From Candidatus Kaiserbacteria bacterium RIFCSPHIGHO2_01_FULL_53_29 (GTDB taxonomy: Bacteria > Patescibacteriota > Minisyncoccia > Phycocordibacterales > UBA2100), in contig MFKT01000021.1 in assembly GCA_001781125.1 (NCBI GenBank), positions 5,178-69,177 on the forward strand: a DNA stretch of 64,000 nucleotides, written 5' to 3'. Below, one piece after another: positions 14,067-57,234 of the stretch (the first letter of the stretch is position 1; each line of letters opens with the position of its first letter). The notes beneath the pieces are model-generated. The model worked only from the letters and a program-made list of their open reading frames with translations. It made no database searches and was not told the origin of the DNA. The translations under genes and the position numbers were made by a program.

Positions 14067-14759
14067 TTACTTAAGATTTTCGATCATTGGTGATACCTCT
14101 CCGTAATAAGCCCGTGCATCGGAAAGCATTTTCTGCACTGGCACTTGATATGACCGGATTAGATCAACTTGTTCCGGGTCAAGGATCGCGTGCTCGGGCC
14201 GTACCATGCCAGAGTAGTCGGGGAAGCTTGCGTATGGATATGCCCGTATTTTTCTCTCTAGTCTCTGCATGTTTTTAACGAAACCGGATTTCCATTTAGG
14301 TTCGAATAATTCGCACGGATTCATGTGGACATAATCGACCGCACGATGCATATACCGATCGTCCGAGATGTGTTTCGATCTAAACGGCTTGATGAATAAA
14401 TTTCCCACACGGTCGTGCAGATTGTTGAAATAGAGTGCATAGCCCGTTCCGATCTTATGCATAAATCGAGAAATGCCGTGCTCCACAATTTCTTTCATCA
14501 ACAGGTGGATGTGGTTCGGCATCAGACAAAATGCACCAATGGCTACTAACGGTGACTTTCTTGGAAGAGTAAATGTCTCAGCGTATGAAACATGCTCGAA
14601 CAATGGGCGTTGAAGCGATTTTGTGTCGTTTGCCAAATAGAGGAGTTGCATGAACCGGCGATAGTGCGCGTCCTCCTCAAAGGTTATTCTTTTGTCGATG
14701 CCGCGATTGAAACAATGGAAATATTCATCTATTGCAAATGGAGTACGTCTGTAACTCAT
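14067..14759 (-). CDS. IS200-like Y1 HUH transposase, REP-associated tyrosine transposase (RAYT) type
   Basis: HuH motif LMPNHIHLLMKE. Catalytic-Tyr region YALYFNNLHDRVGNLFIKPFRSKHI. Paralogue of 34051..34728. Flanked by REP1 palindromes. Start taken at the internal ATG (MSYRRTPFAIDEYFHCF), which aligns with the paralogue; the track start codon at 14792 is TTG. Confidence 0.7.
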   Translation of the reverse strand: MSYRRTPFAIDEYFHCFNRGIDKRITFEEDAHYRRFMQLLYLANDTKSLQRPLFEHVSYAETFTLPRKSPLVAIGAFCLMPNHIHLLMKEIVEHGISRFMHKIGTGYALYFNNLHDRVGNLFIKPFRSKHISDDRYMHRAVDYVHMNPCELFEPKWKSGFVKNMQRLERKIRAYPYASFPDYSGMVRPEHAILDPEQVDLIRSYQVPVQKMLSDARAYYGEVSPMIENLK

Positions 14760-14797
14760 GAACTTATTGTAGCAACAAAATATGCTCGACAATAAGG

Positions 14798-14841
14798 TTA
14801 CCTTAGAGGCCTACCTTAGAGGCGTCGCCTCTAAGGTAGGT
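14798..14841. repeat. REP-like palindromes (REP1, right flank of RAYT1; two tandem units)
   Basis: TTACCTTAGAGGCCTACCTTAGAGGCGTCGCCTCTAAGGTAGG contains the perfect palindrome TACCTTAGAGGCGTCGCCTCTAAGGTA. Confidence 0.6.
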
Positions 14842-14883
14842 TCATGGAGGCCTACCGGTGCGGGAGGAAGGTACAATGGTCGA

Positions 14884-16227
14884 GTGAAATTATCAGACAT
14901 CACCGGAGTACGCATCAAAAAAGTGGCGGTGGTTGCGCAGGTCGTTGCGTCCTCCGCCGTCGCTGTGGGTGCTGCGGCTGTGGTGGCAGCGACGCGCGTA
15001 GCTTCTCCGCATAATAGCCACTCCATCGTCGAGCATGAGCTCGAGAAAGGGACGGAACTTTCGGTCATACGGCTCGTCGATCTCCTTATCGAGCGTGCGC
15101 AAGCGGCGCACGCATCAGATATCCATCTCGATCCGCGCGCAGGCTCGGTGGTAGTCAGGCTCCGTATCGACGGGATCCTGCAGGATGCTCACACGCTTCC
15201 CTCGAGCATTCACCATGAGGTTATCTCGCGCATCAAGATCCTTTGCGGCTTGCGCACCGACGAGCACCAAGCGGCACAAGACGGCCGTTTCCGCATCACG
15301 CTTGAGAGCGCTCTCTCGGTCGACGTGCGTGTTTCCATCGTGCCTACGTACCACGGAGAAAATGCTGTCTTGCGGCTTCTCTCTGATCAAGCAGAGGAAT
15401 TCACGCTCGAAACACTAGGGCTTACGCCAGAGAATCGCGCGAAGATCCTTCGCGCGATCAATAAGCCGCACGGCATGATCCTCGCGACCGGCCCGACCGG
15501 AAGCGGAAAGACGACGACACTCTACACGCTCGTTAAAATGCTCAACGTCCCCGCTGTTTCCATCATTACTGTTGAAGACCCCATCGAGTATTCGATATCA
15601 GGTATCAATCAAATACAGATCAACCCGCGCACGGGTCTCACATTCGCCAATGGCCTTCGGAGCATTCTAAGACAAGACCCCAACATCATCATGGTGGGTG
15701 AGATCCGGGATACCGAAACCGCCGGTCTTGCCGTCAACACGGCGCTTACCGGTCACCTTGTGCTCTCGACACTCCACACCAACGATGCGCCGACGACTCT
15801 ACCGCGTCTTCTCGACATGAAGATCGAACCATACCTCATCGCCTCGACCGTGAATATTGCCATCGGCCAGCGACTTGTCCGGCGCATCTGCAAACAGTGT
15901 AAGGAAGAACGCCCGATGACAAGTGCAGAAGCGGGGAGTCTTTCTGAGATCATGTCTGCGGAGCTTATCGAACTACCGGGCGTCTTTTACGCAGGTTCGG
16001 GCTGTGAGGCATGCGCGGGCACAGGCTATCGCGGGCGCGCGGGCATTCACGAAGTCATGGAGATCGACAATGATATTCGTGAGGCGATACTTCACAAAAC
16101 ATCTGCCCGCGAGATCCGTGATGTCGCCATACGCCAAGGCATGACGCCTCTTGTAGTTGATGGATTCCACAAGGCAGCACAGGGCCTGACCACGATCGAA
16201 GAGGTCTTGCGCACGCGCTATGAATAA
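14884..16227 (+). CDS. pilB: type IV pilus assembly ATPase PilB (GspE family)
   Basis: Walker A GPTGSGKTT; GspE core VIRLVDLLIERAQAAHASDIHLDP; C-terminal tetracysteine motif CKQC...GCEACAGTGYRGR. The track ORF start 14782 reads through REP1-R. Start reset to GTG 14884, which has a GGAGG 16 nt upstream; start uncertain. Confidence 0.8.
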   Translation: MKLSDITGVRIKKVAVVAQVVASSAVAVGAAAVVAATRVASPHNSHSIVEHELEKGTELSVIRLVDLLIERAQAAHASDIHLDPRAGSVVVRLRIDGILQDAHTLPSSIHHEVISRIKILCGLRTDEHQAAQDGRFRITLESALSVDVRVSIVPTYHGENAVLRLLSDQAEEFTLETLGLTPENRAKILRAINKPHGMILATGPTGSGKTTTLYTLVKMLNVPAVSIITVEDPIEYSISGINQIQINPRTGLTFANGLRSILRQDPNIIMVGEIRDTETAGLAVNTALTGHLVLSTLHTNDAPTTLPRLLDMKIEPYLIASTVNIAIGQRLVRRICKQCKEERPMTSAEAGSLSEIMSAELIELPGVFYAGSGCEACAGTGYRGRAGIHEVMEIDNDIREAILHKTSAREIRDVAIRQGMTPLVVDGFHKAAQGLTTIEEVLRTRYE

Positions 16228-17314
16228 ACCCTCCAATAAACTTTCAGTGCGAAAGAAACCTCTGCTTCTTCATTTTCCGCCACAGGAGCAAGCTCTGTTT
16301 GCCAAACGCCTCGGCATGATACTGCGTAGTGGCATGCCTATCATGGAGGGTCTGCAGATGCTCGGCGGCTCTGTGCGTTCGAGATCCGCGACCTACATGT
16401 ACGGACATCTGATCGAGCATGTCGAGAGTGGACAGCCGCTCTCGACGGGACTTGAGAAATTCAGGAAGATTTTTGGTGAGTTCTGCATCAACATCGTGCG
16501 GGTGGGGGAGAGCTCGGGCACGTTGCACGAGAACCTCGAGTATCTTGCCGAAGAGCTCAAGAAAAAAACGGCGCTGCGCAAAAAGGTCCTCGGCGCCTTG
16601 GTCTATCCCGCAATCATCGTTGTCGCGACGGTCGGGATCTCACTCGTTCTCACGGTGTATATCTTCCCGAAGATCACGCCCATCTTCCAAAGTTTCAAAG
16701 CACAGCTTCCGCTTACGACGCGCATGCTCATCGCGATATCGGATTTTCTCATCCACGATGGCTTGTGGCTTTTTATCGGAGTCGTGGCGACTGTAGTTTG
16801 CTGTCTTTTTCTTTTCCGCATTCCGCGCTTCCATCTTAGTGTCGACCACTTACTTCTGAAGCTCCCGCTTTTCGGGAAGCTTTCGCAGTACTACAATCTT
16901 GCCAATTGCTCCCGCACTCTCGGGCTTCTCCTCAAAAGCGATATGGGGATCGTGAGCGCACTCACTATCGTCACAAAAAGTTCGCGCAACCTTGCCTACA
17001 GGATCGCCCTTGCGAGTGTGACGAAAGAGGTGATGAAAGGGCAGAAAATCTCCACGCAGCTTACGAAAAATCCGAAACTGTTTCCACCGCTTTTTTCCCA
17101 GATGATCGAGGTCGGTGAACAGACGGGGAATCTCTCGAGCTCGCTCATGTATCTTTCCGATATGTACGAGGAGGAGATCAGCGACCTCACAAAGAATCTC
17201 ACGACGCTGATCGAACCGATTCTCATGCTCTTGATGGGCATCATTGTGGGCTTCATTGCGATATCGATCATTACGCCTATCTATGGCATCACCCAGCAAC
17301 TTACACCCCGCTAG
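16220..17314 (+). CDS. pilC: type IV pilus inner-membrane platform protein PilC (GspF family)
   Basis: GspF-family repeats with three TM segments. Overlaps pilB by 8 nt. Confidence 0.8.
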   Translation: MNKPSNKLSVRKKPLLLHFPPQEQALFAKRLGMILRSGMPIMEGLQMLGGSVRSRSATYMYGHLIEHVESGQPLSTGLEKFRKIFGEFCINIVRVGESSGTLHENLEYLAEELKKKTALRKKVLGALVYPAIIVVATVGISLVLTVYIFPKITPIFQSFKAQLPLTTRMLIAISDFLIHDGLWLFIGVVATVVCCLFLFRIPRFHLSVDHLLLKLPLFGKLSQYYNLANCSRTLGLLLKSDMGIVSALTIVTKSSRNLAYRIALASVTKEVMKGQKISTQLTKNPKLFPPLFSQMIEVGEQTGNLSSSLMYLSDMYEEEISDLTKNLTTLIEPILMLLMGIIVGFIAISIITPIYGITQQLTPR

Positions 17315-17819
17315 AGGCCTGCACGTAAAGTACCTGCGGCCTGCGCAGACAGGCTTCACCCTGCTTGAAGTCATGATCGTGATGGCGCTCGTCACCATTG
17401 TTGGGGCCTTCGGACTTTTGCTTGGTACGGACAGTTATCGCGGGTATTCTTTTCACTCGGATCACGACATTCTTGTTGCGGCTCTGCAGCATGCACGTTC
17501 GCAAGCCATCGGTAATGTATGTCTCGGGGAGGGTTGTACGCACGGGATGCCGCACGGCGTCTTTATTGATGCGGCTCATAATCGGTACGTCATCTTCCAA
17601 GGAACAAACTACGCGACGCGCGATGGGGAGGTCGACGCAGCGCTCGAGGCTGCGCCGGGAATGACCCGAAGCGGACTGTCGGAGATCGTATTCGCGCAGC
17701 TCTCCGGCAGTGCGAATTCGGCAGAAGCGCCGCCATGGGGAATTGTTCTCACTGATCCTACCGGTCGTACCTCAACGACCACTATCGAGAGCGAAGGGAG
17801 GATCTGGTGGACGCATTAA
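17283..17819 (+). CDS. prepilin-type N-terminal cleavage/methylation domain protein (minor pilin / pseudopilin-like)
   Basis: Class III signal ...RPAQTG|FTLLEVMIVMALVTIVGAF. Start ATG 17283 is uncertain and gives a long leader. Confidence 0.55.
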   Translation: MASPSNLHPARGLHVKYLRPAQTGFTLLEVMIVMALVTIVGAFGLLLGTDSYRGYSFHSDHDILVAALQHARSQAIGNVCLGEGCTHGMPHGVFIDAAHNRYVIFQGTNYATRDGEVDAALEAAPGMTRSGLSEIVFAQLSGSANSAEAPPWGIVLTDPTGRTSTTTIESEGRIWWTH

Positions 17820-17821
17820 CT

Positions 17822-19324
17822 ATGCAGCGCGGTTTCTCAACGCTCGAATTGTTGATAGCGATGGCGCTCATGGTTGTGACGCTCTCGGCCGTTATCGAGG
17901 TTTCGTTCGGCAATCAAGATATGCTCGTAAGTGGTGAAATGAATGCCGAGGCGCTGCGTATGGCCCAGACATTGCTGGAAGAGGAACAGCAACTCGCACG
18001 CAAAGATTTTAAGCTCGTGAACCCGATTGCGGTGACTACGAACGGCCCCTACGACACGTCAGTTACAGTCGAGCCATGGCCGGGAGATCCGTACACAACA
18101 AAGCGCGTGACCGCACATGTGAATTGGAGCGACGCACGTCATGTCACCAGAGGCGTCGCGCTCACCACACTCGTTAGCAATTTTGTGAGTGCCTCCGGCG
18201 CAGACACGTGCATCTCGGCGCTTACCGGAGACTGGAGCGCGCCGCAAAAGACCGACTACCAACTTGCTTCCGGTAGTCTTCTTCCCTCCGGTTTCCTTGG
18301 AAACTACCCGTTATCCGACATCGATGCGTCTCGGGGCACATTATATGTGGCGGTCGCAAGCACGAGTGCCGCCGCCCGTGCCAACTTTTTCGTGTTCGAT
18401 GTGAATCCAAGCGGAATGCCGGTCTATGTGAACAGCACAGACAATAACCCATCGAGTATCGACGGCATCAATGCGGTTCAGATCGCAGGTATCCAAGCCT
18501 TTGTCGCGAACGCTCACGATGCAAACTTCAAGACGTGTAAACCGGGAGCAAACTGTTCGCAACTCCAGATATTCAATCTCAATACGTTGTCGACACCCCC
18601 CGTGAATTTCTTGATACCCACCTCAACGCCACCGTTCGTACTCGGAAATATGACGAGCAACAATCAGGCAGTGGGCAAGAGCCTCTTTTACAAAGATGGC
18701 TACGTGTATCTTGGGCTCACGAAAACCGCAAGCGGTCCGGAATTCAATATCATCGATGTGCACGATCCTGCAACTCCGGCGTGGGTCGGGAGTTTCTCAG
18801 TCGGCGCGAGTATCAATGCGATCTACGTGAGAAATAATTACGCGTATCTTGCGACAGACGACAGCAGCAGGGAATTGATAATTCTCGATGTCGGAAATCC
18901 CGCGAGTCCGATTTTGGCACTCGGCACGGTTATTAATCCCGGGGGGTTAGGATTTGGCAGGAGTTTGTATGGAGTGGGCGACACGTTGTATCTCGGACGG
19001 ACATTCGCAAACGGGGCTAAGGAATTGTACCTTTTGGATGTTGCAGACCCGAGCACGAATATGTCGGCGCCGCTTGGATCGCTTGTGATCGGAAGCAGTG
19101 TCAACGCACTGGTCGTACGCGACTATCTTGCGTTTCTTGTGACCTCGACCACCAAACGGATCCACATACTCAATATTTCAAATCCGGCAAGCATCACCCC
19201 ATTTGCTCCGGCGCTATCGCTTCCGGGCACAGGTGCCACGCTTGATTGCGAGCAGAATGTTCTCTATGCGGGCTCAAACGGCACGGGCACGGGCTTTCTA
19301 TCAGTCATCACGTCTGGGCCATGA
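17822..19324 (+). CDS. prepilin N-terminal domain fused to an LVIVD-repeat beta-propeller (candidate pilus tip adhesin)
   Basis: MQRG|FSTLELLIAMALMVV prepilin signal. Four or more LVIVD-like repeats (YAYLATDDSSRELIILDVGNPASP; YLAFLVTSTTKRIHILNISNPAS; LYLGRTFANGAKELYLLDVADPS; YVYLGLTKTASGPEFNIIDVHDPATP). Confidence 0.6.
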   Translation: MQRGFSTLELLIAMALMVVTLSAVIEVSFGNQDMLVSGEMNAEALRMAQTLLEEEQQLARKDFKLVNPIAVTTNGPYDTSVTVEPWPGDPYTTKRVTAHVNWSDARHVTRGVALTTLVSNFVSASGADTCISALTGDWSAPQKTDYQLASGSLLPSGFLGNYPLSDIDASRGTLYVAVASTSAAARANFFVFDVNPSGMPVYVNSTDNNPSSIDGINAVQIAGIQAFVANAHDANFKTCKPGANCSQLQIFNLNTLSTPPVNFLIPTSTPPFVLGNMTSNNQAVGKSLFYKDGYVYLGLTKTASGPEFNIIDVHDPATPAWVGSFSVGASINAIYVRNNYAYLATDDSSRELIILDVGNPASPILALGTVINPGGLGFGRSLYGVGDTLYLGRTFANGAKELYLLDVADPSTNMSAPLGSLVIGSSVNALVVRDYLAFLVTSTTKRIHILNISNPASITPFAPALSLPGTGATLDCEQNVLYAGSNGTGTGFLSVITSGP

Positions 19325-19824
19325 AGCGACGAACGACAAGCTGCAAAGGATTCACCATGATAGAGACGCTCGTCTATCTTGCGCTTTACGCGATTATTAT
19401 GACCGGGTTACTTTCGGCAGTCTACAGTCTGATTGAATCGAGCGTGCATAACCAAACGGTCGCCATGGTGGAAGAGGAGGGAAATTTTCTCGCAGGAAAA
19501 ATAGAGTGGGCTCTTTCGAATGCGCGCGAGATTCTGGCGCCTTCCTCGAGTGGCTCGACGCTCTCCGTTACGACATTCGATGGCTCACCGATCACGATTG
19601 GCCTCACGGGTGGCGACATGCGGATACAAGAAGCATCGAATCCCGCACACATTCTGAACAACACAAATGTTTCAATAACCAATCTCTCGTTTACTCACGC
19701 CCGTGCTTCTTCCGACGGGATCAATCCCGAAAGTATTGAGTCTTCATTTACCATTTTTGCGACTACATCGAGCGGTCGTTTTTTATCCCGCGCGTTCTCG
19801 ACGCTTAAATATCTACGAAAATGA
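19321..19824 (+). CDS. prepilin-type pseudopilin
   Basis: MKRRTTSCKG|FTMIETLVYLALYAIIMTGLL. ATGA overlap with the upstream gene. Confidence 0.55.
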   Translation: MKRRTTSCKGFTMIETLVYLALYAIIMTGLLSAVYSLIESSVHNQTVAMVEEEGNFLAGKIEWALSNAREILAPSSSGSTLSVTTFDGSPITIGLTGGDMRIQEASNPAHILNNTNVSITNLSFTHARASSDGINPESIESSFTIFATTSSGRFLSRAFSTLKYLRK

Positions 19825-20294
19825 AACGCAACGCACGCGGAATGGAGAAGGAGAGGGGATTTGTGGCGCTTATCTCCACGCTGATTATTTCAGCCATCCT
19901 GCTCGGACTTGTGTTTACGGCTGGCGCGGCCAGTTTTTACGCGCGATTTGATTCGTTGGGCATAGAAAACAAGCGTGTGAGTTTGGGTTTGGCGGAGTCC
20001 TGCATTGAAATTGCGCTGCTCGCTCTTTCCACGTCAACCGCTCCCAGTGCATTGAGTCCAACGAACCAGATCGTTCCAGTCGGTATCGATCCACAGGGGA
20101 ACCCGACAACATGCGTCATCGAAAGCGTCACGCACGCGGGTGGAGTCGCGACGATCAAAGCGCACGCATCGTTCAGAGGCACTTTCAGCGCAGTCGTCGT
20201 AAGCGCAACTGTTGCAGATCCTACCGTTGCACCAGCGTCATTTCCCGCACCCCCGAACATTGATATCCAGTCTTGGACTGAAAAGCCGCAGTGA
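19821..20294 (+). CDS. prepilin-like protein (PilX-like)
   Basis: MEKERG|FVALISTLIISAILLGLVFTAGA. ATGA overlap with the upstream gene. Confidence 0.5.
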   Translation: MKRNARGMEKERGFVALISTLIISAILLGLVFTAGAASFYARFDSLGIENKRVSLGLAESCIEIALLALSTSTAPSALSPTNQIVPVGIDPQGNPTTCVIESVTHAGGVATIKAHASFRGTFSAVVVSATVADPTVAPASFPAPPNIDIQSWTEKPQ

Positions 20295-20389
20295 ACCAGC
20301 TGCGCAGAAGCTTCATTTGAGATGTCTGCGGTTTTATCAGCTCGTGTGGAAGGGAGGATGCCTCCTGTCATAATATTATTTTATTAACA

Positions 20390-20436
20390 CCCATATCCCT
20401 CAATCCTTGACGGCCGTCTATAATGGGGGGATATGG
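20390..20436. promoter_or_regulatory. nested palindrome overlapping the regulator start codon (candidate operator)
   Basis: CCCATATCCC-tcaatcctt-GACGGCCGTC-tataat-GGGGGGATATGGG; the ATG 20433 is embedded in the right arm. Confidence 0.4.
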
Positions 20437-21011
20437 GAAAGCTTGAGAATGAAGCCCGGTATGAGCGCCGTAAGGGGTATCTTCAACAGGCACTTCTCGC
20501 TGCCGTTGCAATTCCGGGACTGCTGCTCGTAGCCACCGCAGCGCCCAATGTTTTACAGCTTATCGAAAGACTTCCCGGCAACAAATACAAATTCAACTAT
20601 CGAATGAAGTCGGTCGCTTCCCGCCTGGCGCAACGCAAGCTCGTACGCTTCGTCGAACGAAACGGCAGAAAATATATGGAGATCACGGAAGCGGGCAGAC
20701 AAGTGCTTGAAATGGAACAACAAAAACGAACATTCGAGAAGCGTTCGCGCAGGCGGTGGGATAAACGATGGCGCATGATCATCTTTGACATACCGGAGAA
20801 ATATCGAGCGACCAGGAGTCGACTGCGAGTCATGTTGAGATCACTCGGTTTCGTGCAGCTGCAAGGAAGCGTTTGGGTATATCCCCATGATTGTGAGGAA
20901 GTGATCGCGCTCTTGAAAAGTGAACTCCGCGTGGGAGCATCCGTGCTCTACACGATAGTAGAGAAAATCGAGAACGATGCTGCTCTCAAAGATCATTTTG
21001 GTCTTCGTTGA
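20433..21011 (+). CDS. PaaX-like transcriptional regulator (N-terminal wHTH, PaaX_C-like C-terminus)
   Basis: RLAQRKLVRFVERNGRKYMEITEAGRQVL wing-helix. C-terminal WDKRWRMIIFDIPEKYRATRSRLRVMLRSLGFVQLQGSVWVYP resembles the PaaX/Cas2-fold C domain. Confidence 0.45.
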   Translation: MGKLENEARYERRKGYLQQALLAAVAIPGLLLVATAAPNVLQLIERLPGNKYKFNYRMKSVASRLAQRKLVRFVERNGRKYMEITEAGRQVLEMEQQKRTFEKRSRRRWDKRWRMIIFDIPEKYRATRSRLRVMLRSLGFVQLQGSVWVYPHDCEEVIALLKSELRVGASVLYTIVEKIENDAALKDHFGLR

Positions 21012-21013
21012 GT

Positions 21014-21058
21014 ATCCCCTTATTATGAACGGCCGTCAAAAATCGGGGGATGTTTTTT
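21014..21058. promoter_or_regulatory. second copy of the nested palindrome, followed by a T-run (operator and/or terminator)
   Basis: ATCCCC-ttattatg-AACGGCCGTC-aaaaatc-GGGGGAT-gttttttt. Same ACGGCCGT core and ATCCCC/GGGGAT outer arms as 20390-20436. About 140 bp upstream of the major pilin gene. Confidence 0.4.
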
Positions 21059-21195
21059 TATGAACCCGGAATAGTGGAAATGCCACGGCACTCTCAAGTT
21101 GTTCTTGAGATTCGAATTTCAACTAAGATGCTCCCGCGAGTTATGCACAGCCGGACGTTGCTGTTTATTCACGGAGATTTTATTATCACGCGAAT

Positions 21196-21684
21196 ATGGA
21201 ATCAATTAAAAAAGTATCGAAGACCTGCCTACCGGCAGGCAGGGGTTTTACATTAATAGAAATCTTAGTGGTCATCGGTATCATCGCCGTTTTGGCAGCA
21301 ATCGTTATTATCGCCATCAATCCGGCTCGCCAGTTCGCGCAGGCACGTAACACGCAGCGAACGAGCAATGTCAGCACGATCTTGAATGCGGTCGGTCAAA
21401 ATATTGCGGATAATAAAGGTGTCTTTACCTGCGCCAGCAACACACTTGCGCTTGGTACAACGGCAGTCCACATTGGCACGAGTGCAACTTTGGCAGATTT
21501 CTCCTGTCTCGTGCCGACATACATTCCTTCAGCCATCCCGACTGACCCCAATGGTGGAACTGCGGCCGACACAGACTACACGGTGGCGGTTGATGCCAAT
21601 GGCCGCTTTACGGTATGCGCTCCGAATTCGGTAACCGAACATGAGATATCGAATCCTGGGCCTACGATCTGTCTCACGCGCTAA
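21196..21684 (+). CDS. type IV pilin (major pilin candidate)
   Basis: ...PAGRG|FTLIEILVVIGIIAVLAAIVIIAINP. Confidence 0.65.
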   Translation: MESIKKVSKTCLPAGRGFTLIEILVVIGIIAVLAAIVIIAINPARQFAQARNTQRTSNVSTILNAVGQNIADNKGVFTCASNTLALGTTAVHIGTSATLADFSCLVPTYIPSAIPTDPNGGTAADTDYTVAVDANGRFTVCAPNSVTEHEISNPGPTICLTR

Positions 21685-34050: not shown

Positions 34051-34728
34051 ATGGCAAATCGGCCTCCTTTTGAGTTAGGCGAGTGGTATCACTGTTTCAG
34101 CCGCGGTGTCGAGAAAAGAAAGGTATTTGAGAACGAGCTAGACGCAAATCGTTTTCTCATGCTTCTGTACTTAGCGAATGGAACAAAGCCCATACAGATT
34201 TTTAATACATACAAACCGGAACTTTCAAAAGCACTCAAAACTGATCGGGGAACTCCGATTGTTGCGGTTAGTGCGTATTGTCTGATGCCCAATCATTTTC
34301 ATTTGCTATTAAAAGAAGTCGTTGAGGGCGGCATTTCATCGTTTATGAGGAAGTTAGGAATTGCATACACAATGTATTTTAACGAAAAGAATGAACGTGT
34401 AGGGAATCTGTTTGTAAAACCCTTCCGGTCGCGGCGGATTGGTACCGATCGTTATTTCCAACGCGTTCTTCAATACATTCACTGCAATCCAGCTGAATTA
34501 TACGAGCCAGCTTGGAAATCTGGATCAGTGCGAAATATTCGCACACTGGAGAAGAAACTTGTTGATTATCCCTACTCAAGCCTCCGAAATTATTCATTGC
34601 CAAAGAGCAATAACAGGATTCTTTCAAAAGATGGATTTGATGTTGCCGATCATCCTTCGGCCGCCAGAATGATTGAAGATGCTCGATCCTATTATGCGGA
34701 CATTGCAGAAGACAGATTCGAGCGCTAG
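34051..34728 (+). CDS. IS200-like Y1 HUH transposase, RAYT type (paralogue of 14067..14759)
   Basis: LMPNHFHLLLKE HuH motif; YTMYFNEKNERVGNLFVKPFRSRRI Tyr region. Flanked by REP2 palindromes. Confidence 0.7.
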   Translation: MANRPPFELGEWYHCFSRGVEKRKVFENELDANRFLMLLYLANGTKPIQIFNTYKPELSKALKTDRGTPIVAVSAYCLMPNHFHLLLKEVVEGGISSFMRKLGIAYTMYFNEKNERVGNLFVKPFRSRRIGTDRYFQRVLQYIHCNPAELYEPAWKSGSVRNIRTLEKKLVDYPYSSLRNYSLPKSNNRILSKDGFDVADHPSAARMIEDARSYYADIAEDRFER

Positions 34729-44902: not shown

Positions 44903-45838
44903 ATGACCCAAGTCCTCAAAGAAACAAATTTTGATTTTCTCGGAAAAAAGAAGGTAGGCAAAGTGCGCGATATCTATGATGCCGGCGACAAACTCATTCT
45001 CGTAACGACCGACCGGCACTCTTCCTTCGACCGTATCATCGCGCATATCCCGTGGAAGGGGCAGGTGCTGAATCAGGTGAGTGCGTGGTGGTTTGAACAG
45101 ACAAAGGATATTGTTCCCAATCACGTGCTTGCGATACCGGATCCCAACGTCACCGTTGGTAAAAAAATGAAAATGGTTCCCGTCGAAGCTGTCGTGCGCG
45201 GTTATTTGACCGGAGTCACCGACACCGCGATCTGGACGCGCTATTCGGGCGGTATGCGGGAATTCGGCGATCTGAAGTTACCTGATGGCTTGAAGAAGAA
45301 TACGAAATTGCCGCAACCGATCTTTGATCCAACGACCAAAGAAGATACCCACGACCGCGCTATCTCAACCGAGCAGATGGTGCAAGAGGGTCTCATAACC
45401 GCCGAATTGCTCGCGCAGGTGAAAGATACGGCGATGAAACTTTTCCTGCGCGGGCAGGTGCTTGCGGCCAAAAGCGGGCTCATCCTCGTTGATACCAAGT
45501 ACGAGTTCGGCACCGATATGGAAGGAAACCTTGTTCTTATTGACGAAATTCACACGCCAGATTCTTCGCGCTATTGGCAGATCGAAGGATATGAAGAAAG
45601 CCTCATCAACGGTGGCGAGCCCAAGAGTTTCGACAAAGAATTTTTGCGCCTGTGGTTCAAGGAGCACTGCGATCCGTATAAAGATGCGTTGCTCCCAGAA
45701 GCACCCACCGAGCTTGTGGAAGAGCTCTCGCGACGGTACATTCAGATGTATGAACAGATTACGGGCCAGAAGTTCATACCCGGCGAATCTCCCGTCATCC
45801 CTCGTATTGAGCGTAATCTAAAAAACTATGCCGCTTGA
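44903..45838 (+). CDS. purC: SAICAR synthetase PurC
   Basis: GKVRDIYDAGDKLILVTTDRHSSFD. Confidence 0.8.
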   Translation: MTQVLKETNFDFLGKKKVGKVRDIYDAGDKLILVTTDRHSSFDRIIAHIPWKGQVLNQVSAWWFEQTKDIVPNHVLAIPDPNVTVGKKMKMVPVEAVVRGYLTGVTDTAIWTRYSGGMREFGDLKLPDGLKKNTKLPQPIFDPTTKEDTHDRAISTEQMVQEGLITAELLAQVKDTAMKLFLRGQVLAAKSGLILVDTKYEFGTDMEGNLVLIDEIHTPDSSRYWQIEGYEESLINGGEPKSFDKEFLRLWFKEHCDPYKDALLPEAPTELVEELSRRYIQMYEQITGQKFIPGESPVIPRIERNLKNYAA

Positions 45839-47249
45839 ACCACTTATCGCAGTCAGTTCGGTCGACGGACGCTACCGCACCTATGCGGATATGCTGTACA
45901 CGTCGATCAGCGAATTTGCCCTCATCCGGAATCGTGTGCGCGTGGAATGTGAATATTTGATAACGCTTTCGGAAACAAAAAGTATCGGAATCCGCGCCTT
46001 GAACCCGGAAGAAAAGAAAATGCTCCAGAAGATTGTGGCCGATTTTTCTCTCGACGATGCGCATATCGTCAAAAAGATAGAGCAGGATGGATTCGAGAGT
46101 ATTCCCGCCACGAATCACGACATGAAAGCTGTTGAGTACTTTATCAAGGGAAAACTGGCGAAAACCTCTCTTGCCGATGTTTCCGAGTGGATTCATTTCG
46201 GACTCACATCAGAAGACGTCGACAACATTGCCTACGCCCTCATGATCCGCTCGGCTCTTGACGAGGCGATTTTGCCCGCTCTCGATATCGTAGAGAAGTC
46301 GCTCGAAGGACTTGCCCGTGAGCATGCAGGAAGTGCCATGCTTGCGCGCACCCACGGCCAGCCCGCCTCGCCGACGACGTTCGGGAAGGAAATGCGAGTA
46401 TTTGAGGCGAGACTTTCGCGGCAACTCCAGCAGCTCAAGGAACGGTCTCTGTTGGTGAAGTTGGGTGGCGCGACAGGGAATTACAATGCGCATGCGGTGG
46501 CCGCGCCCGACGTGGATTGGCAGAAGTTCGCCCAAACGTTCGTTGCCTCGTTCAACCCTACTTCGCACGAGGCTTCGAAGGGCACAGCAATAAATCTTGA
46601 GCTCAACGGCGTAACGACACAGATAGAACCGCACGATACTTACGCGGAACTCTTCGACAACATGCGGCGCATCAATACGATACTCATCGGATTTTCGCAG
46701 GATATGTGGCGCTACATCAGCGATGGTTGGATCATACAGACTCCTAAGCTCGGCGAGGTTGGTTCCTCAACGATGCCGCACAAAGTGAATCCAATAGATT
46801 TCGAGAATGCGGAAGGGAACTTGGGTGTGGCAAACGCGCTCTTCGAGCATTTCTCGCGCAAACTGCCTATCTCGCGCCTACAACGGGATCTTTCGGATTC
46901 GACCGTGAAGCGCACATTCGGCCTCGCATTCGCGCACTCATACATCGGATATCGTGTGCTTGCGAAGGGCTTGGCGAAAGTCAGCGTGAATACCGAAGCC
47001 ATGCTTAAAGAGCTCCAAACCCACCCGGAAGTGCTCGCGGAAGCCATCCAAACGATGCTTCGCCGCGAAGGCGTCGAGGTACCCTATGAAAAACTCAAAG
47101 ACCTCACGCGCGGTCGGCAGGTAACGCTCGACGACTTCACGAAGTTCATTGACGCTCTCTCCGTAAGCGACGAAGCAAAAAAACGTCTCAAAGCGCTGCG
47201 ACCCGAAAATTACATCGGACTTGCCGAAAAGATCGCCAAGGGCCAATAA
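45828..47249 (+). CDS. purB: adenylosuccinate lyase PurB
   Basis: Fumarate-lyase signature SSTMPHKVNPIDFENAEGN. Confidence 0.85.
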   Translation: MPLEPLIAVSSVDGRYRTYADMLYTSISEFALIRNRVRVECEYLITLSETKSIGIRALNPEEKKMLQKIVADFSLDDAHIVKKIEQDGFESIPATNHDMKAVEYFIKGKLAKTSLADVSEWIHFGLTSEDVDNIAYALMIRSALDEAILPALDIVEKSLEGLAREHAGSAMLARTHGQPASPTTFGKEMRVFEARLSRQLQQLKERSLLVKLGGATGNYNAHAVAAPDVDWQKFAQTFVASFNPTSHEASKGTAINLELNGVTTQIEPHDTYAELFDNMRRINTILIGFSQDMWRYISDGWIIQTPKLGEVGSSTMPHKVNPIDFENAEGNLGVANALFEHFSRKLPISRLQRDLSDSTVKRTFGLAFAHSYIGYRVLAKGLAKVSVNTEAMLKELQTHPEVLAEAIQTMLRREGVEVPYEKLKDLTRGRQVTLDDFTKFIDALSVSDEAKKRLKALRPENYIGLAEKIAKGQ

Positions 47250-47288: not shown

Positions 47289-47681
47289 CTAGCCTGTAGC
47301 TCGCTCCTGGTTTTTATCTTCAGAACCCTCGTACGCTAGTGCAACGAGATACATATACCGGCGAGGATACCTGCTCGGCAAGTCGAGGAAGTCTTCTAGA
47401 AGCGCAGATAACTTCTCTTTATCTTTGGGTATTCGGAATTCGACCCCTTTTGCCACCGCGGGGTCATTTTCGTATTTGGAAATAAGACCGCTTGCAATCT
47501 CGTCTGGAGACAATCTCTCAGTTTTTTCTACCGCAACTGGTCCTCCTATTGAAATTGCGTTGTCGACTGCATCAAGGTTGTCAAGGATTCCCTCGGCATT
47601 CAGATCCGCTATCTCCCCAGGAAGGCGTTTTCCCAACTTGGGAAACCTCAGAACGTCCCCTGTTCCTCCTTCTCGGCTCAT
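47289..47681 (-). CDS. hypothetical protein
   Basis: 130-aa ORF with no recognisable motif; possibly not expressed. Confidence 0.25.
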   Translation of the reverse strand: MSREGGTGDVLRFPKLGKRLPGEIADLNAEGILDNLDAVDNAISIGGPVAVEKTERLSPDEIASGLISKYENDPAVAKGVEFRIPKDKEKLSALLEDFLDLPSRYPRRYMYLVALAYEGSEDKNQERATG

Positions 47682-47696
47682 ACTGCAAGTATACGC

Positions 47697-47762
47697 TATT
47701 GTTTGAGTCCCAATCCTGTGCGAATAAGGTACCAGTTGACTGCTGTGAGAACCGCTATTCCA
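47697..47762 (-). pseudogene. diverged duplicate of the 3' end of the ABC-2 permease gene (fragment)
   Basis: Minus-strand translation ...IAVLTAVNWYLIRTGLGLKQ* matches the C-terminus of the permease at 48728..49510 (...LVAINWYLIRTGLGLKQ*). Shares the 19-mer CGAATAAGGTACCAGTTGA with 48751-48769. Confidence 0.45.
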
Positions 47763-47955
47763 CCCTCTCTTTCAAGCACGCTCTCCTCCATAAGGGAAGT
47801 CTAGCAAAATTCTGCTGTTGCAGCACTATCGTACGACCCACTTTTCTTAGATGAACACTTGGTGAAGGGGCCCGGTGATCGGTGTAAGCGTCCAAGAGGC
47901 GGATCGTCTTCATGATGCACAGGTTGTGCGCATTATAAACCAATAAAAAACACGT

Positions 47956-48660
47956 ATGATCAGCTTTATCAAACGTCAGAGTGCACGTATTGGAGCTACT
48001 GTTACATTGCTCTTTGCCGTTCTCGTTCTCGGCGTGCAGCATGCCCATGCGCAATATCAGTACGGCGCTACCCAACCGGCGAGTGGCGTTATTACCTCAA
48101 CTATGGATCCGGGTGACTCTGGAGGGAACGTGACCGCGCTCCAGATATTTCTCGCCAAGGACCCAGCCATCTATCCGGAAGGATCGGTGACGGGTTTCTA
48201 CGGGGCCCCTACCATGGTTGCTGTGCAGCGCTTCCAATGCAGACATGAAATTATCTGCGAGGGAGATGTTGCTTCGACTGGTTATGGCCGGGTAGGTCCT
48301 GTGACGCTTAGGGTGATTCAATCACTCCAGGGGTCAGTGTCGCTTCCGTTGCCCTTTACGCGTGCTGATGTATTTGCACCCGTCATGAGTACCGCGACAA
48401 TAACAGTGGCCTCAACGTCTGCGACCTTCCACTGGACGACGAATGAACCCGCAATGAGCGCGGTGCTCTATGGAAGTGCGTGGCCCTTCTACATCGGGAC
48501 AGCGCCGAGTGCGTGGGACAGAACAACAATGGATCTCTCTGCCAATGTAGTGGTGACGGGTCTCACGCCCAACACCACGTACCACTATGTCTTGCAATCT
48601 CTCGACGCCTCGGGGAATGTGCAATGGGACGTTGGAAGATCGTTTACCACCTTGCGGTGA
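47956..48660 (+). CDS. secreted protein with peptidoglycan-binding-like domain and FN3-like domain
   Basis: Signal peptide. GNVTALQIFLAKDP...GFYGAPTMVAVQRFQ. TFHWTTNEPAMSAVLYG...TGLTPNTTYHYVLQSLDASGN. Confidence 0.6.
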   Translation: MISFIKRQSARIGATVTLLFAVLVLGVQHAHAQYQYGATQPASGVITSTMDPGDSGGNVTALQIFLAKDPAIYPEGSVTGFYGAPTMVAVQRFQCRHEIICEGDVASTGYGRVGPVTLRVIQSLQGSVSLPLPFTRADVFAPVMSTATITVASTSATFHWTTNEPAMSAVLYGSAWPFYIGTAPSAWDRTTMDLSANVVVTGLTPNTTYHYVLQSLDASGNVQWDVGRSFTTLR

Positions 48661-48671
48661 GCGACCGCATC

Positions 48672-48714
48672 ACTCAATGCAAAATCCCGCCTCGAGCGGC
48701 ATTTTGCATTGAGT
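48672..48714. terminator. long perfect hairpin between convergent genes (bidirectional terminator candidate; no T-tract)
   Basis: ACTCAATGCAAAAT-cccgcctcgagcggc-ATTTTGCATTGAGT (14-bp stem). Confidence 0.45.
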
Positions 48715-48727
48715 CAACAAACGGTGT

Positions 48728-49510
48728 TCATTGTTTTAATCCTAGACCGGTACGAATAAGGTACCAGTTGATGGCGACGAGAGCTGCGATCATACCTACC
48801 AAGACCGCCAGCGATATCCAGAGAGAGATGTCGGCAATGCCTAAGAAGCCATAGCGGAAGCCGTTGACGAGGTAGAAAATCGGATTCACGAAGGTGGCGT
48901 ATTGTGCGATTTGCGGGAGCGAATGCACAGAATAAAAGACGCCGCCGAGATATACCAGAGGTGTCAAGACAAACGTGGGTACGAGATTGATGCCGTCGAG
49001 GGATTTTGCATACACGCCGTTGACCAAACCTGCGAGGGAGAATACGAGTGCGGTCATAACCGCGAAGAGGAAGATGATCGCGGAGTTGAAAAGCGAGATA
49101 TGGAGGCCGGTAAAAAAGATGGAAATGAGAAGCACGAGCGTACCAACCAATACGCCGCGCACGATGCCTCCCGATATGAATCCGGCGATGAGCAGCCACG
49201 GCGGAGTGGGCGAGACGAGTATCTCGTCGATGCCGCGGAAGAAGAATTTGGATTGGAAGAAGGTGAATGAGGTGTTGGAATAGGCGTTGGTCACGATAGC
49301 GAGCATCACGAGCCCTGGTACCACGAACGACATGTAGTCGACCCCCTGCATATCACCGATGCGCGAGCCGAGCACGGTGCCGAAAATAAGGAAATAGAGG
49401 CATGAGGTGATGACGCTCGGCAGGAAGGTCTGCACCCAAATGCGGAACATGCGCACCACATCCTTGCGGAGCATGGTGTAAAAAGAGATCCATTTCTGAT
49501 ACGAGTTCAT
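48728..49510 (-). CDS. ABC-2 type transporter permease
   Basis: Six TM segments; ABC-2 family. Start taken at MNSYQKWISFY, 4 nt downstream of the ATPase stop. Confidence 0.7.
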   Translation of the reverse strand: MNSYQKWISFYTMLRKDVVRMFRIWVQTFLPSVITSCLYFLIFGTVLGSRIGDMQGVDYMSFVVPGLVMLAIVTNAYSNTSFTFFQSKFFFRGIDEILVSPTPPWLLIAGFISGGIVRGVLVGTLVLLISIFFTGLHISLFNSAIIFLFAVMTALVFSLAGLVNGVYAKSLDGINLVPTFVLTPLVYLGGVFYSVHSLPQIAQYATFVNPIFYLVNGFRYGFLGIADISLWISLAVLVGMIAALVAINWYLIRTGLGLKQ

Positions 49511-49514
49511 ACGA

Positions 49515-50279
49515 TTACTTTTCGCTCGTGAGCTTGAGGAACACCTCCTCGAGCCGACCGCCGCGATACCCGTCTTTGGAAGGGGAGCCATCGTGATGCT
49601 TCGCGATGACCTCTTCCATGGTGCCGCTCGCCACGATCTCACCCTTGTTGATGATCGCGACATGCTTGCAGAGCTGCTCGGCCTCTTCGAGGTAGTGGGT
49701 CGTGAGTAAGATTGTGAGGCCGGAAGCGCTCAAGCCCGTAAGGTAATCCCACATGCCGCGCCGCAATTCCACGTCGACGCCCGCGGTCGGCTCGTCGAGG
49801 ATGAGGAATTTTGGTTCATTGACGAGCGCGCGCGCTATCATGAGGCGGCGCTTCATGCCGCCCGAAAGCGTCATGGCGTTTTGTTCCATTTTCTCTCCGA
49901 GGCCGAGATCAGTGAGAAGCTTTTTGGCACGGGGGATGGCCACGGAGCGGGGGATGCCATAGTAGCCGGCCTGATTCACGATGATGTTGAGGGTCTTCTC
50001 GAACGGGTTGAAGTTGACCTCCTGACCGACGAGGCCGATCTGCATTTTTGCCAGCTCTGTCTCTTTGTCTATATCATGCCCGAATACCGAGACTGTTCCG
50101 CTCGTTTTATTGACCAGTCCCGTCGTAATGCCGATGATGGTCGTTTTCCCCGCGCCATTGGGTCCCAAGAGCGCAAAAAAATCACCCTGCGGTATTTCGA
50201 GCGATACACCCTTCAGGGCCACCGTACCCGTCGCGTAGGTTTTCTTGAGGTCATGGATAGAGAGTGCGGGAGCTGGCAT
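49515..50279 (-). CDS. ABC transporter ATP-binding protein
   Basis: Walker A LGPNGAGKTT, signature LSGGMKRRL, Walker B LILDEPT. Confidence 0.85.
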   Translation of the reverse strand: MPAPALSIHDLKKTYATGTVALKGVSLEIPQGDFFALLGPNGAGKTTIIGITTGLVNKTSGTVSVFGHDIDKETELAKMQIGLVGQEVNFNPFEKTLNIIVNQAGYYGIPRSVAIPRAKKLLTDLGLGEKMEQNAMTLSGGMKRRLMIARALVNEPKFLILDEPTAGVDVELRRGMWDYLTGLSASGLTILLTTHYLEEAEQLCKHVAIINKGEIVASGTMEEVIAKHHDGSPSKDGYRGGRLEEVFLKLTSEK

Positions 50280-52243: not shown

Positions 52244-53368
52244 TTAAATCCTGCGGGCCGAGAAATCCACCGCGATCTCATTGAGCACGTTTTTCGAGTT
52301 GGCTTCCTGCCCGATGATGCCACGGCCCGCGACCCCGGGGAGTGAGATCGACACGCTTGTGCCGCGCCCCACGGCGCTTCGCACGGTGATCTTGCCGTGA
52401 TGCATTTTCACCAGCTCGCTCACGATAGCAAGGCCGAGGCCCGAGCCACCTGCGCTTCTTGTGCGCGAAGGATCGCCGCGGTAAAAGGGCTCGAAGATGC
52501 GGTAGAGATCTTTGCGCGGGATCCCCGTTCCTGAATCTTGCACGATGAGCTCGACGTAGTTATTTGCCACTGGTTCCACACTGATGCGGATGTGTCCGTT
52601 GCGTGGCGTGTAGCTGATAGCGTTCTTCAAAAGATTACCCACGATCTGCGTCAGAGCAGTCGCGTTACCCCAGACGGTAACGTCGAGACCCTTCCTCACG
52701 GTGATCTGATGTTCACCGATCTTGGCAAGTTGCGAGAATTTCTGTACCGTATCGGTCACTACCGCCGAAAGGTCAACCGCGCTGAATTCAACGCGCTCCG
52801 GCCGCACCAGCGCCGAGAGGGAGACCAGGTTGTTGATGATCTCGGAGATGCGGTCAAGCTCTTCCACATTGCTCTCGAGTGTTGTCTTTAGCCCCGCGTC
52901 GACGTGAGTATCCAAGAGTGCGACCTCGGTATTCGTCTTGAGGATCGACAGTGGCGTGCGCAATTCGTGGGCGATGTTGCCGATGAATTGTTTTTGCGAA
53001 GCGAGCGCATTGCGCGTCGGGGCGAGCGTGATGCGTGCGATGATATAGCTGAAGAGAATGGTCGTGAGCGTGATGATGGCGACAATACCCCCGAGATTCC
53101 GCGTTTTGATATTCTGAAGTTCTCCCACGATCAAAGGGGCGGCCGCTTGGGGGTTTGAGGAAGCGGCGGCCTGTATGCCCTCTACGATCGCCGCAGAGAT
53201 GTTGTGGTAGAGCAGGCTAAAGGACGCCCCCACGATGCCGAGGATGACGAGGGCAAAGGCGATCTGCAGCGAGATGACATTGACTTCCGTGCGGAAGAAT
53301 GGATCGCGGCGGTATTTATTCAGCCAGCCGGTACCCAATTCCCCGAACCGTCTCAAGTACGCTACCAT
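52244..53368 (-). CDS. sensor histidine kinase (HisKA + HATPase_c)
   Basis: H-box AHELRTPL; N, G1 and G2 boxes (VQDSGTGI, GGSGLGLAIV); one N-terminal TM. Start uncertain: candidate Met codons overlap the upstream response-regulator gene. Confidence 0.75.
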   Translation of the reverse strand: MVAYLRRFGELGTGWLNKYRRDPFFRTEVNVISLQIAFALVILGIVGASFSLLYHNISAAIVEGIQAAASSNPQAAAPLIVGELQNIKTRNLGGIVAIITLTTILFSYIIARITLAPTRNALASQKQFIGNIAHELRTPLSILKTNTEVALLDTHVDAGLKTTLESNVEELDRISEIINNLVSLSALVRPERVEFSAVDLSAVVTDTVQKFSQLAKIGEHQITVRKGLDVTVWGNATALTQIVGNLLKNAISYTPRNGHIRISVEPVANNYVELIVQDSGTGIPRKDLYRIFEPFYRGDPSRTRSAGGSGLGLAIVSELVKMHHGKITVRSAVGRGTSVSISLPGVAGRGIIGQEANSKNVLNEIAVDFSARRI

Positions 53369-53990
53369 TCTCACCGTCACCAATTTTTCTTCGAAGATTT
53401 TTGACATGGACGTCTACAACATTGCTAAAGCCGGCATAGTTGAAATCCCACAAATGATTGAGCAGGTCTTCCCGATTTACGACCTGATTCGGGTGCCGCA
53501 TGAAGTATTCCAGAAGCCCGAATTCTTTGAGCGTGAGCGGGACTTCTTTGCCTTCCCGTGCAACTTTACGCTGTGCCGGATTGAGTTCGATATCGCCGAC
53601 CGTGAGCGTCTCTGGCAGCGTTTCGCTCGGTCGTCGCAAGAGGGCCTGAATGCGCGCGTTCAATTCTGCGAATGAGAACGGCTTGACCAGATAATCATCG
53701 GCGCCCGCGAGCAGGAGCTGCACTTTTGTATCGGTTTCCGCGCGCGCGGTAAGAATAAGGATGGGGAGGGTGATATTCATCTCACGCACCTGTTTGCATA
53801 TCTCGAGCCCGTCCATTGAGGGGAGCATGAGGTCGAGGATAACGAGGTCATAATCGCTCCGGTGGAGCGAAATGCGTGTGAAGGCTTTCTTGCCGTCATT
53901 GATAATGTCGGCGGTGTATCCCTCGTGCTCGAGCCCCTTCTTGAGCGCTTCTGCTAATTTTTGTTCGTCTTCTACGAGAAGTATTTTCAT
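53316..53990 (-). CDS. OmpR-family response regulator
   Basis: MKILLVEDEQ receiver with D in VILDLMLP; winged-helix C-terminus. Confidence 0.8.
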   Translation of the reverse strand: MKILLVEDEQKLAEALKKGLEHEGYTADIINDGKKAFTRISLHRSDYDLVILDLMLPSMDGLEICKQVREMNITLPILILTARAETDTKVQLLLAGADDYLVKPFSFAELNARIQALLRRPSETLPETLTVGDIELNPAQRKVAREGKEVPLTLKEFGLLEYFMRHPNQVVNREDLLNHLWDFNYAGFSNVVDVHVKNLRRKIGDGENGSVLETVRGIGYRLAE

Positions 53991-56722: not shown

Positions 56723-56956
56723 ATGACGAAGCTGTTTGAAGAGGGAATCGAGGCGGTGAAGAATCTGCCGCGTGCTCGGCAAGACGTCGCAGGGGAATTT
56801 TTGCTTGCGATTGCGGAACAGAACGCCCGGTCTTATAGCCTCAGCGAAGAGCAGGTAAAGGAGGTCAAGCGCCGACAGCAAGCTTTCAAGAGGGGCAAAG
56901 AGCCCTACGTAAGTGACAAAGAAATGGCCAGACTTTGGAAAAAGTTGGGTCTATGA
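56723..56956 (+). CDS. type II antitoxin (ParD/Phd-like, putative)
   Basis: 78-aa helical protein immediately upstream of, and overlapping by 4 nt, a RelE/ParE toxin. Confidence 0.45.
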   Translation: MTKLFEEGIEAVKNLPRARQDVAGEFLLAIAEQNARSYSLSEEQVKEVKRRQQAFKRGKEPYVSDKEMARLWKKLGL

Positions 56957-57234
56957 GAGTGAGGTATCGGCGGCGTGCCAAGCTCGATGTCGAGAACCTG
57001 TACCGCTACATTGGTGAGCGAGATCAGCACGCAGCGACTTCGGTTGCCGCGCGCATTCGTTTTGCCGTCAGTCGTCTTGGAGCGTGGCCATATATGGGAC
57101 ACGTGGGAAGCGCGGCAAAAACATACGAGTGGATCGTCGCTGGACTACCCTTTGTAATTGTCTACGAAGTTGATGAAGTGGCGAACGAAATCGCGATTAT
57201 CGCTGTCTTCCATTGCGCGCAAGATCGTCCATAA
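56953..57234 (+). CDS. type II toxin, RelE/ParE family
   Basis: RelE/ParE fold motifs: C-terminal WIVAGLPFVIVYEVDEVANEIAIIAVFHCAQDRP. Confidence 0.6.
   Translation: MRVRYRRRAKLDVENLYRYIGERDQHAATSVAARIRFAVSRLGAWPYMGHVGSAAKTYEWIVAGLPFVIVYEVDEVANEIAIIAVFHCAQDRP

Follow-up and report, generated by a model that had tools for sequence, protein, structure and literature searches.

A second, displaced permease 3' end beside sec234 in a Candidatus Kaiserbacteria genome: a probable scar of recombination between lineages

The DNA analysed here, referred to as the window, is a 64,000-nt stretch of contig MFKT01000021.1 from Candidatus Kaiserbacteria, an uncultivated groundwater bacterium belonging to the candidate phyla radiation (CPR; Patescibacteria). 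It carries an intact gene for an ABC-2 permease and, about 1 kb away on the same strand, a diverged second copy of that gene's 3' end, here called the orphan end, whose origin is the subject of this report. Between 45.8 and 50.3 kb, the plus-strand order is purB, p130, the orphan permease end, a 191-nt spacer, sec234, a hairpin, the permease, and its ATPase (Table 1). The space between permease and purB is called the slot below, and the loci of other lineages used for comparison carry L numbers. The 1-kb segment between the two permease ends holds sec234 as its sole gene, and the original prediction, made from the letters of the window, had read it as a one-gene cassette bounded by attL- and attR-like copies of a gene end.

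Table 1. Features of the permease-purB region (positions in the window, except where a locus is named)
Feature	Position	Strand	Remarks
purB (adenylosuccinate lyase)	45828-47249	+	convergent with p130; right-hand conserved flank of the slot; synteny in 17 loci; Pfam Lyase_1/ASL_C
p130, small-protein gene, 130 aa	47289-47681	-	starts 14 nt past the stop codon of the orphan end
Orphan (displaced) permease 3' end, 22 codons + TAG	47696-47764	-	within a 31-codon ATG-started open reading frame (ORF), 47696-47791
117 nt without a matched origin	47765-47881	.	from the orphan end to the sec234 upstream region; left edge is junction J1
Conserved upstream (putative regulatory) region of sec234	47882-47955	+	motif TGTAAGCG...CGTCTTCAT...CATTAT
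sec234, secreted protein, 234 aa	47956-48660	+	Pfam: PG_binding_1-like and FN3-like (Pur_ac_phosph_N) domains
Strong hairpin where the sec234 and permease genes converge	48672-48714	.	likely bidirectional terminator
Intact ABC-2 (YadH-like) permease gene, 260 aa	48728-49510	-	Pfam ABC2_membrane E=5.5e-33; 90-91% identity to the L001, L002, and L004 orthologs
Homologous counterpart of the orphan end in the intact permease, 22 codons + TGA	48728-48796	-	codon-by-codon comparison
Exact 19-mer	48753-48771	.	second occurrence at 47721-47739; encodes (I/V)NWYLIR
ABC ATPase, permease partner	49515-50279	-	left-hand conserved flank; Pfam ABC_tran E=1.5e-32; up to 92.5% identity to orthologs
p130 homologs	L136 127-525; L137 1128-1502; L138 1318-1683		four-lineage family, counting window 47289-47681

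The intact permease ends in ...GMIAALVAINWYLIRTGLGLKQ and the orphan in GGIAVLTAVNWYLIRTGLGLKQ, and the two are in frame with each other over 22 codons and the stop codon. They agree at 49/69 nt (46/66 over the last 66) and remain in register at an offset of 1032, which confirms the second copy that had been predicted. Its predicted extent, 47697-47762, needed adjustment: the stop codon TAG occupies 47696-47698, 1 nt from where it had been placed, and the in-frame homology reaches 47764. The shared identical 19-mer, CGAATAAGGTACCAGTTGA, was also found as described, with exactly two occurrences in the window and a chance expectation of 0.01. When 33 orthologous permease ends were made into a nucleotide profile, it matched the orphan copy over model positions 28-89 of 90 (nhmmer, E=6e-13), so the similarity is not limited to the 19-mer. 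The AATCCT motif of the original prediction is present in both copies (positions 47712 and 48738) but its two occurrences are shifted by 6 nt in register and stem from distinct Gly-Leu codon pairs in a GLGL repeat, and it is therefore not a shared site. A comparison of ORF ends across the window (66 ORFs) showed the permease end to be the sole gene end with a second copy outside its gene (tblastn, E=3e-9). Other gene-end duplications, which had been proposed as a further check, were not found among these ends; the remaining notable matches were between paralogs only, namely two Y1_Tnp genes and the repeat-rich surface proteins.

Over the last 14 codons, the nucleotide differences between the two ends are all synonymous (9/9), the change of stop codon from TGA to TAG included. 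In a simulated in-situ duplication with selection on the working copy only, the orphan kept the terminal peptide NWYLIRTGLGLKQ and its stop with P ~2e-5. Since a neutral copy made in place would so rarely keep the peptide, the comparison shows the two ends to be xenologous and to have diverged in separate functional genes. The orphan is about as far from the resident end (46/66) as it is from those of other species (39-48/66). Across all 35 orthologs examined the C-terminal peptide hardly varies, and any functional ortholog could therefore have supplied the one found in the orphan.

Homology of the orphan to permease ends spans about 25 nt on each flank of the 19-mer. In the 25 nt preceding it, orphan and resident are identical at 14/25 positions, and the orphan peptide reads IAVLT there, as in L008, L137, and L138. 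Runs of at least 19 exact nucleotides are found in 31 of 595 pairs of orthologous permease ends (5%) because the NWYLIR codons are conserved. Judged by these comparisons, the 19-mer is codon conservation and by itself is no evidence of an att core or of a demonstrated crossover core.

The orphan end is joined to p130. A word-indexed protein search gave p130 matches confined to the same species, and a full HMMER scan of 1.84 billion representatives gave three homologs with 43-50% identity (in L136-L138). All three lie directly after a permease ending in ...RTGLGL(K/R)Q and directly before a convergent purB, with no sec234 between permease and purB on these contigs. This is the arrangement, a permease followed directly by the sequence of the p130 side, that the original prediction had proposed to look for in relatives. 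Relative to the permease stop, the homologs start with a 4-nt overlap in one case and after 25 nt and 14 nt in the other two; p130 in the window likewise starts 14 nt after the orphan stop. In all three lineages the homolog is paired with a full-length permease, of which the L136 contig holds the end only, its stop codon overlapped by the p130 homolog; in the window, the partner of p130 is a 3' fragment that lies downstream of, and is oriented like, an intact copy. Because the homologs directly follow a full-length permease and precede purB, synteny shows the orphan end, p130, and purB to be a preserved junction of ancestral type, severed from its permease body at J1.

The p130 family has a conserved C-terminal half, a helical domain with the pattern DPxVxxGVxYRxP...YxRRYxYLVAxAY, and a disordered N-terminal half. 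No Pfam match was obtained for p130, and its AlphaFold model (pLDDT ~85 in the C-terminal half) had no meaningful fold match in the PDB. Many other lineages have unrelated-looking acidic small ORFs in the position of p130 after the permease. Their similarity to p130 is marginal (L027, E ~0.003 in a 24-sequence set), and on this basis they were set aside as homologs and taken as positional analogues. The G+C content at third codon positions (GC3) of p130 is low (0.47, z=-2). It was rejected as a sign of foreign origin, as the small post-permease ORFs, all lower in GC3 than the genes beside them, lie below the permease GC3 in every lineage checked.

The contents of the slot differ among lineages. 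It is empty in L010, L030, and L031, holds a fast-evolving small ORF in many lineages, holds sec234 without the small ORF in L003/L049, L018, and L056, and holds both in L048/L052; the arrangement in the window is the fifth state seen. Wherever sec234 orthologs occur in these four groups of loci, they occupy the same slot and orientation beside the permease, and no duplicated end is present. Such relatives, with the same slot arrangement and no duplicated segment, had been named beforehand as the finding that would speak against att sites. Of the 132 loci compared, none from another lineage showed a second permease end. Neighbour-joining trees of purC, purB, permease, and ATPase were mutually discordant for all taxa. 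The five arrangements together with the discordant trees of the flanking genes point to the permease-purB slot as a recombination hotspot, with changing gene content and mosaicism across Kaiserbacteria.

The product of sec234 was predicted to be a secreted peptidoglycan-binding/FN3 protein, and the Pfam domains agree with this. The window gene groups as an ortholog with the purB-adjacent genes of L048, L053, and L003/L049, with which it has the signal-peptide region and the upstream motif in common, and its upstream region is 73% identical to that of the L048 ortholog. The CGTCTTCAT motif lies about 50 nt ahead of the ATG in orthologs and paralogs alike (L003, L018, L048, L050, L051, L053, L054, and L058). 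The closest sec234 homolog among 5.8 billion proteins has only 57% identity, and nothing therefore suggests a circulating cassette. Close sec234 copies were not found in the 80 metagenome loci and one viral locus retrieved, and viral contigs gave one weak partial match (41% over residues 53-126). With orthologs in the slot that lack the duplication, the comparison shows sec234 as a positional ortholog, not as what could be called a roaming cassette.

The sec234 paralogs carrying the upstream motif in L050 and L051 adjoin a response-regulator/histidine-kinase pair. The motif may be a candidate operator of a two-component system; a HisKA kinase is encoded in the window at 52244-53407.

At the other edge of the orphan, homology to the permease is lost abruptly between 47758 and 47765, which places junction J1 at ~47764/47765. 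The alignments show the loss to be sharp, with the next 117 nt matching nothing; this stretch (47765-47881) had no similarity to any compared locus, to purB 3' ends, or to the permease. Significant RNA structure was not found over the whole of 47682-47960. The long perfect hairpin of the original prediction is a strong one, with one mismatch in its 19-nt arms (95% complementary). The 81 nt at 48655-48735 that contain it fold at -38 kcal/mol (z=-5.7), and the hairpin is likely a bidirectional terminator for sec234 and the permease. A second copy was not found in the window or in the compared loci of other lineages, and no Rfam family matched. Both the hairpin and the spacer were found in this species alone among the compared loci. 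Promoter/terminator and Rfam scans gave nothing informative. A 12-nt perfect complement between the hairpin arm (48677-48688) and the permease interior (49000-49011) is probably a coincidence, with roughly 0.5 expected per 4 kb (a rough estimate).

Mobility genes were also considered. No tyrosine or serine recombinase was seen among the 66 window ORFs (16 scanned with Pfam, the translations of the rest read by eye), in agreement with the original prediction. Two paralogous IS200-like Y1_Tnp genes (HUH, RAYT-like) are present at 14067-14792 (-) and 34051-34728 (+), ~33 and ~13 kb away. An IS200/IS605 or repetitive extragenic palindrome (REP)/RAYT relationship was tested for the hairpin: it occurs once in the window, the opposite end lacks a hairpin, and no repeated hairpin family was seen nearby, which does not fit such an element.

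We consider the duplicated end to be probably the scar of recombination between two diverged Kaiserbacteria lineages with different slot contents. One parent would have had the permease, p130, and purB, with purB convergent, and the other the permease followed by sec234 and a convergent purB. Linear DNA of one lineage, probably entering by natural transformation, would have recombined on one side by a homologous crossover in a conserved flanking gene and on the other by an illegitimate joint at J1, 22 codons ahead of a permease stop codon. The product would be what is now seen: a working permease with its terminator hairpin and sec234, and an orphaned 69-nt end still joined to its cognate p130. 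The incoming block may have been the ATPase/permease and sec234, which would have replaced the contents of a p130-type locus; alternatively, p130 with the orphan end (perhaps also purB) may have been spliced upstream of sec234. The process would be homology-facilitated illegitimate recombination (HFIR), and its outcome a "3'-end displacement." The part of the cassette reading that stands is the roughly 1-kb segment that parts the working permease from its orphaned end; the att interpretation of its boundaries does not agree with the two-sided homology and with the sec234 orthologs that lack a duplication.

Several observations accord with such an exchange. The permeases of L137 and L138 are 76-77% identical to the intact permease of the window, and p130 relates to L136-L138. 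In L137, purB is closest to L004 and L002 (~76%) and the permease to L048 and L138; as purB and permease of different affinities are paired there, block exchange at this locus appears to recur. Type IV pilus genes are encoded in the window, as read from the translations, and com genes are reported to be conserved across CPR, with comEC-dependent transformation and homologous recombination shown in Saccharibacteria (PMC10633639). On these two grounds, DNA uptake is a plausible route of entry.

Other observations weigh against recombination between lineages. When identity with 16 orthologs was followed in sliding 90-nt windows, no clear switch was seen; the intact permease has only a weak L003 signal, in its last 25-90 nt, and its last 25 nt agree with L003 at 22/25 and with every other ortholog at no more than 19/25. 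No donor or pre-event haplotype was found, the 26 contigs read for the species all having the one arrangement. The direction of the exchange was not settled by breakpoint scans, identity matrices, normalised window-versus-group ratios (purB slightly atypical at 0.92, which is not decisive), trees, or GC3. Neither nucleotide nor peptide comparison of 47765-47955 recovered a 3' remnant of purB, which a short purB-sec234 spacer in the sec234-bearing parent might have led one to expect. The orphan's longest exact run with any permease end is the 19 nt shared with the resident, the others being at most 13, and a role for this identity keeps some plausibility. To our knowledge, neither illegitimate recombination nor competence has been demonstrated in Kaiserbacteria.

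The 19-nt identity is the main attraction of the explanation closest to the original prediction, a site-specific or Campbell-type integration in which a ~1-kb circle (its own permease end, the hairpin, sec234, and the spacer) recombined at the 19 bp through a recombinase elsewhere or RecA, leaving attL/attR-like hybrid ends. It would account for a single gene flanked by direct repeats of a gene 3' end, for the intact gene kept whole, and for lineages without sec234 in the slot; the unoccupied target in relatives (permease, p130, and purB with nothing between in L136-L138) is equally expected under recombination. Against it stand the window without an integrase, in which the two IS200-like Y1_Tnp genes are the only transposase-like ones, and the ~25 nt of homology on both flanks of the 19-mer, the signature of a gene fragment and not of an att core with element-specific arms. 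The 5% of ortholog pairs with runs as long, the sec234 orthologs in the same slot without a duplicated end in at least four lineages, and the nearest sec234 homolog at 57%, with one weak viral match and no other cassette copies found, also oppose it. So do the sequences following the core, which vary among sec234-bearing lineages (12-22 of 25 nt), and donor-type loci, whose single permease end offers no obvious excision of such a circle. We regard this integration as unlikely.

Somewhat less credible still is a segmental duplication in place followed by deletions, for example of a purB-sec234-p130-end-permease locus that duplicated sec234-p130-end and lost one sec234 and one p130, the orphan being held by selection as a 31-aa membrane micro-protein or a leader coupled to p130. 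The coexistence of the small ORF and sec234 in the slot of L048 would suit it, as would the intact ATG-started 31-codon ORF annotated by gene callers, the NWYLIRTGLGLKQ end, so nearly invariant family-wide that the peptide could matter, and the overlap of the p130 homolog with the permease stop in L136, which suggests translational coupling. Three events would be needed, however, and absent selection on the fragment the simulated probability is that given above (P ~2e-5). No Shine-Dalgarno-like sequence ahead of the 31-codon ORF and no promoter-like site were found, and the kinship of p130 to lineages with a 76-77% identical permease is left unexplained. Strains at 99.97% identity, examined as a test of selection, showed zero differences inside the orphan fragment. 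An assembly chimera of two co-occurring Kaiserbacteria populations, joined at a shared k-mer, can be given almost no weight. The metagenome source and the 19-mer common to both ends would allow it, but the identical arrangement was read in 26 contigs (13 places shown) from ENA, JGI, NCBI, and Logan at 99.97-100% identity, among them MEGAHIT k141 contigs of up to 89.8 kb, a JGI assembly, an NCBI Rifle genome bin, and Logan contigs. A second strain, in which 0.03% of sites differ, keeps the whole arrangement. Furthermore, J1 lies in unique sequence and not at a repeat, and a repeat-based join would switch sequence there and not leave 1 kb between the copies. As it is recovered in several independent sources and assemblies, the arrangement is not an assembly artefact.

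Recombination between lineages with an illegitimate joint has known parallels. Orphan modules formed by C-terminal (3'-end) displacement are described for rhs, contact-dependent inhibition (CDI), and type VI secretion system (T6SS) effector-immunity loci in the work of Jackson et al. (2009) as cited by Kirchberger et al. (2017; PMC5361080), and HFIR is the model proposed there for T6SS effector-immunity arrays and rhs orphans. As in the present locus, a conserved gene has its end exchanged for that of an incoming module, and the old 3' end and its cognate downstream gene are pushed downstream in the same orientation, with no integrase. In contrast to those systems, the displaced part here is the conserved end of an ABC-2 permease and not a polymorphic toxin domain, and what varies is the gene that follows the permease and not the permease C-terminus. 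There is also a single orphan rather than an array, no evident toxin-immunity logic, and a CPR host. HFIR during natural transformation is listed in PMC5361080 for Acinetobacter (de Vries & Wackernagel 2002), Streptococcus pneumoniae (Prudhomme et al. 2002), and Pseudomonas stutzeri (Meier & Wackernagel 2003), and Escherichia coli conjugation offers a parallel (PMC3240628). Common to these cases and the event proposed here would be the integration of foreign DNA by one homologous anchor and one illegitimate joint, without recombinase or repeats, resulting in an abrupt junction with a change of gene content beside a conserved gene; unlike them, ours is judged from the natural product alone.

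The locus also resembles the integration of phages and integrative and conjugative elements (ICEs) that enter the 3' end of a gene and bring a replacement for it, with attP in tRNA, tmRNA, and protein genes, in its intact target, the displaced copy of the 3' end at the far side, and the short exact identity. It differs in the lack of an integrase in the window, in the homology on both sides of the identity, and in a cargo that is a single chromosomal ortholog, found in the same slot of relatives without duplication and with no evidence of mobility found. With integron cassettes it has in common a palindromic element that adjoins a single, promoter-proximal gene. In contrast to them, no IntI-like ORF is seen in the window, sec234 has its own conserved upstream region, and there is no array. 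Unlike integron attC sites, the hairpin, placed where two genes converge, forms a near-perfect stem of 19 bp and, by inspection, has no extrahelical bases or GTTRRRY cores.

Scars of this kind are known; what is new is the setting, a transporter gene of a CPR bacterium, and no new mechanism is revealed. If read correctly, it would offer, in such a genome, a clean example from nature of recombination between lineages that left an illegitimate joint. Natural competence within CPR was shown experimentally only recently, and for Saccharibacteria only (PMC10633639). For annotation, the locus is a caution that a duplicated gene end alone is no att-site footprint. An extension of this reading, which we think doubtful, would make the ultra-conserved permease end NWYLIRTGLGLKQ and its DNA a recurrent homology handle and the slot a cassette-exchange site at which lineages swap permease-linked accessory genes (p130-like and sec234). 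The orphan would then owe its retention to a use of the 31-codon ORF, whether for a membrane micro-protein or for a p130 coupling leader. If true, rhs and CDI would have an analogue here, a polymorphic locus built on a transporter.

Two observations were made on orthologs of the transporter. An Enterobacterales ABC-2 pair (L032-L035: Budvicia, Pragia, Limnobaculum, and an Enterobacteriaceae metagenome-assembled genome) has ~50% identity to Kaiserbacteria in the permease and 54-62% in the ATPase, which is unusually high across phyla. The permease ortholog in L036 (3644-4422, RIFCSPHIGHO2_01_FULL_55_37) matches as two pieces that overlap, suggestive of a frameshift or internal duplication.

Elsewhere in the window, repeat-rich surface proteins are encoded at 32-5988 and 11326-13602: two secreted proteins of 487 and 1448 aa and a 758-aa collagen-like Gly-X-Y protein. 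These genes are situated upstream of a cluster of type IV pilus genes (14782-21684). A ParE-toxin gene at 56935-57234 (+) is overlapped by a preceding 92-aa ORF (from 56678), and the two probably form a type II toxin-antitoxin pair.

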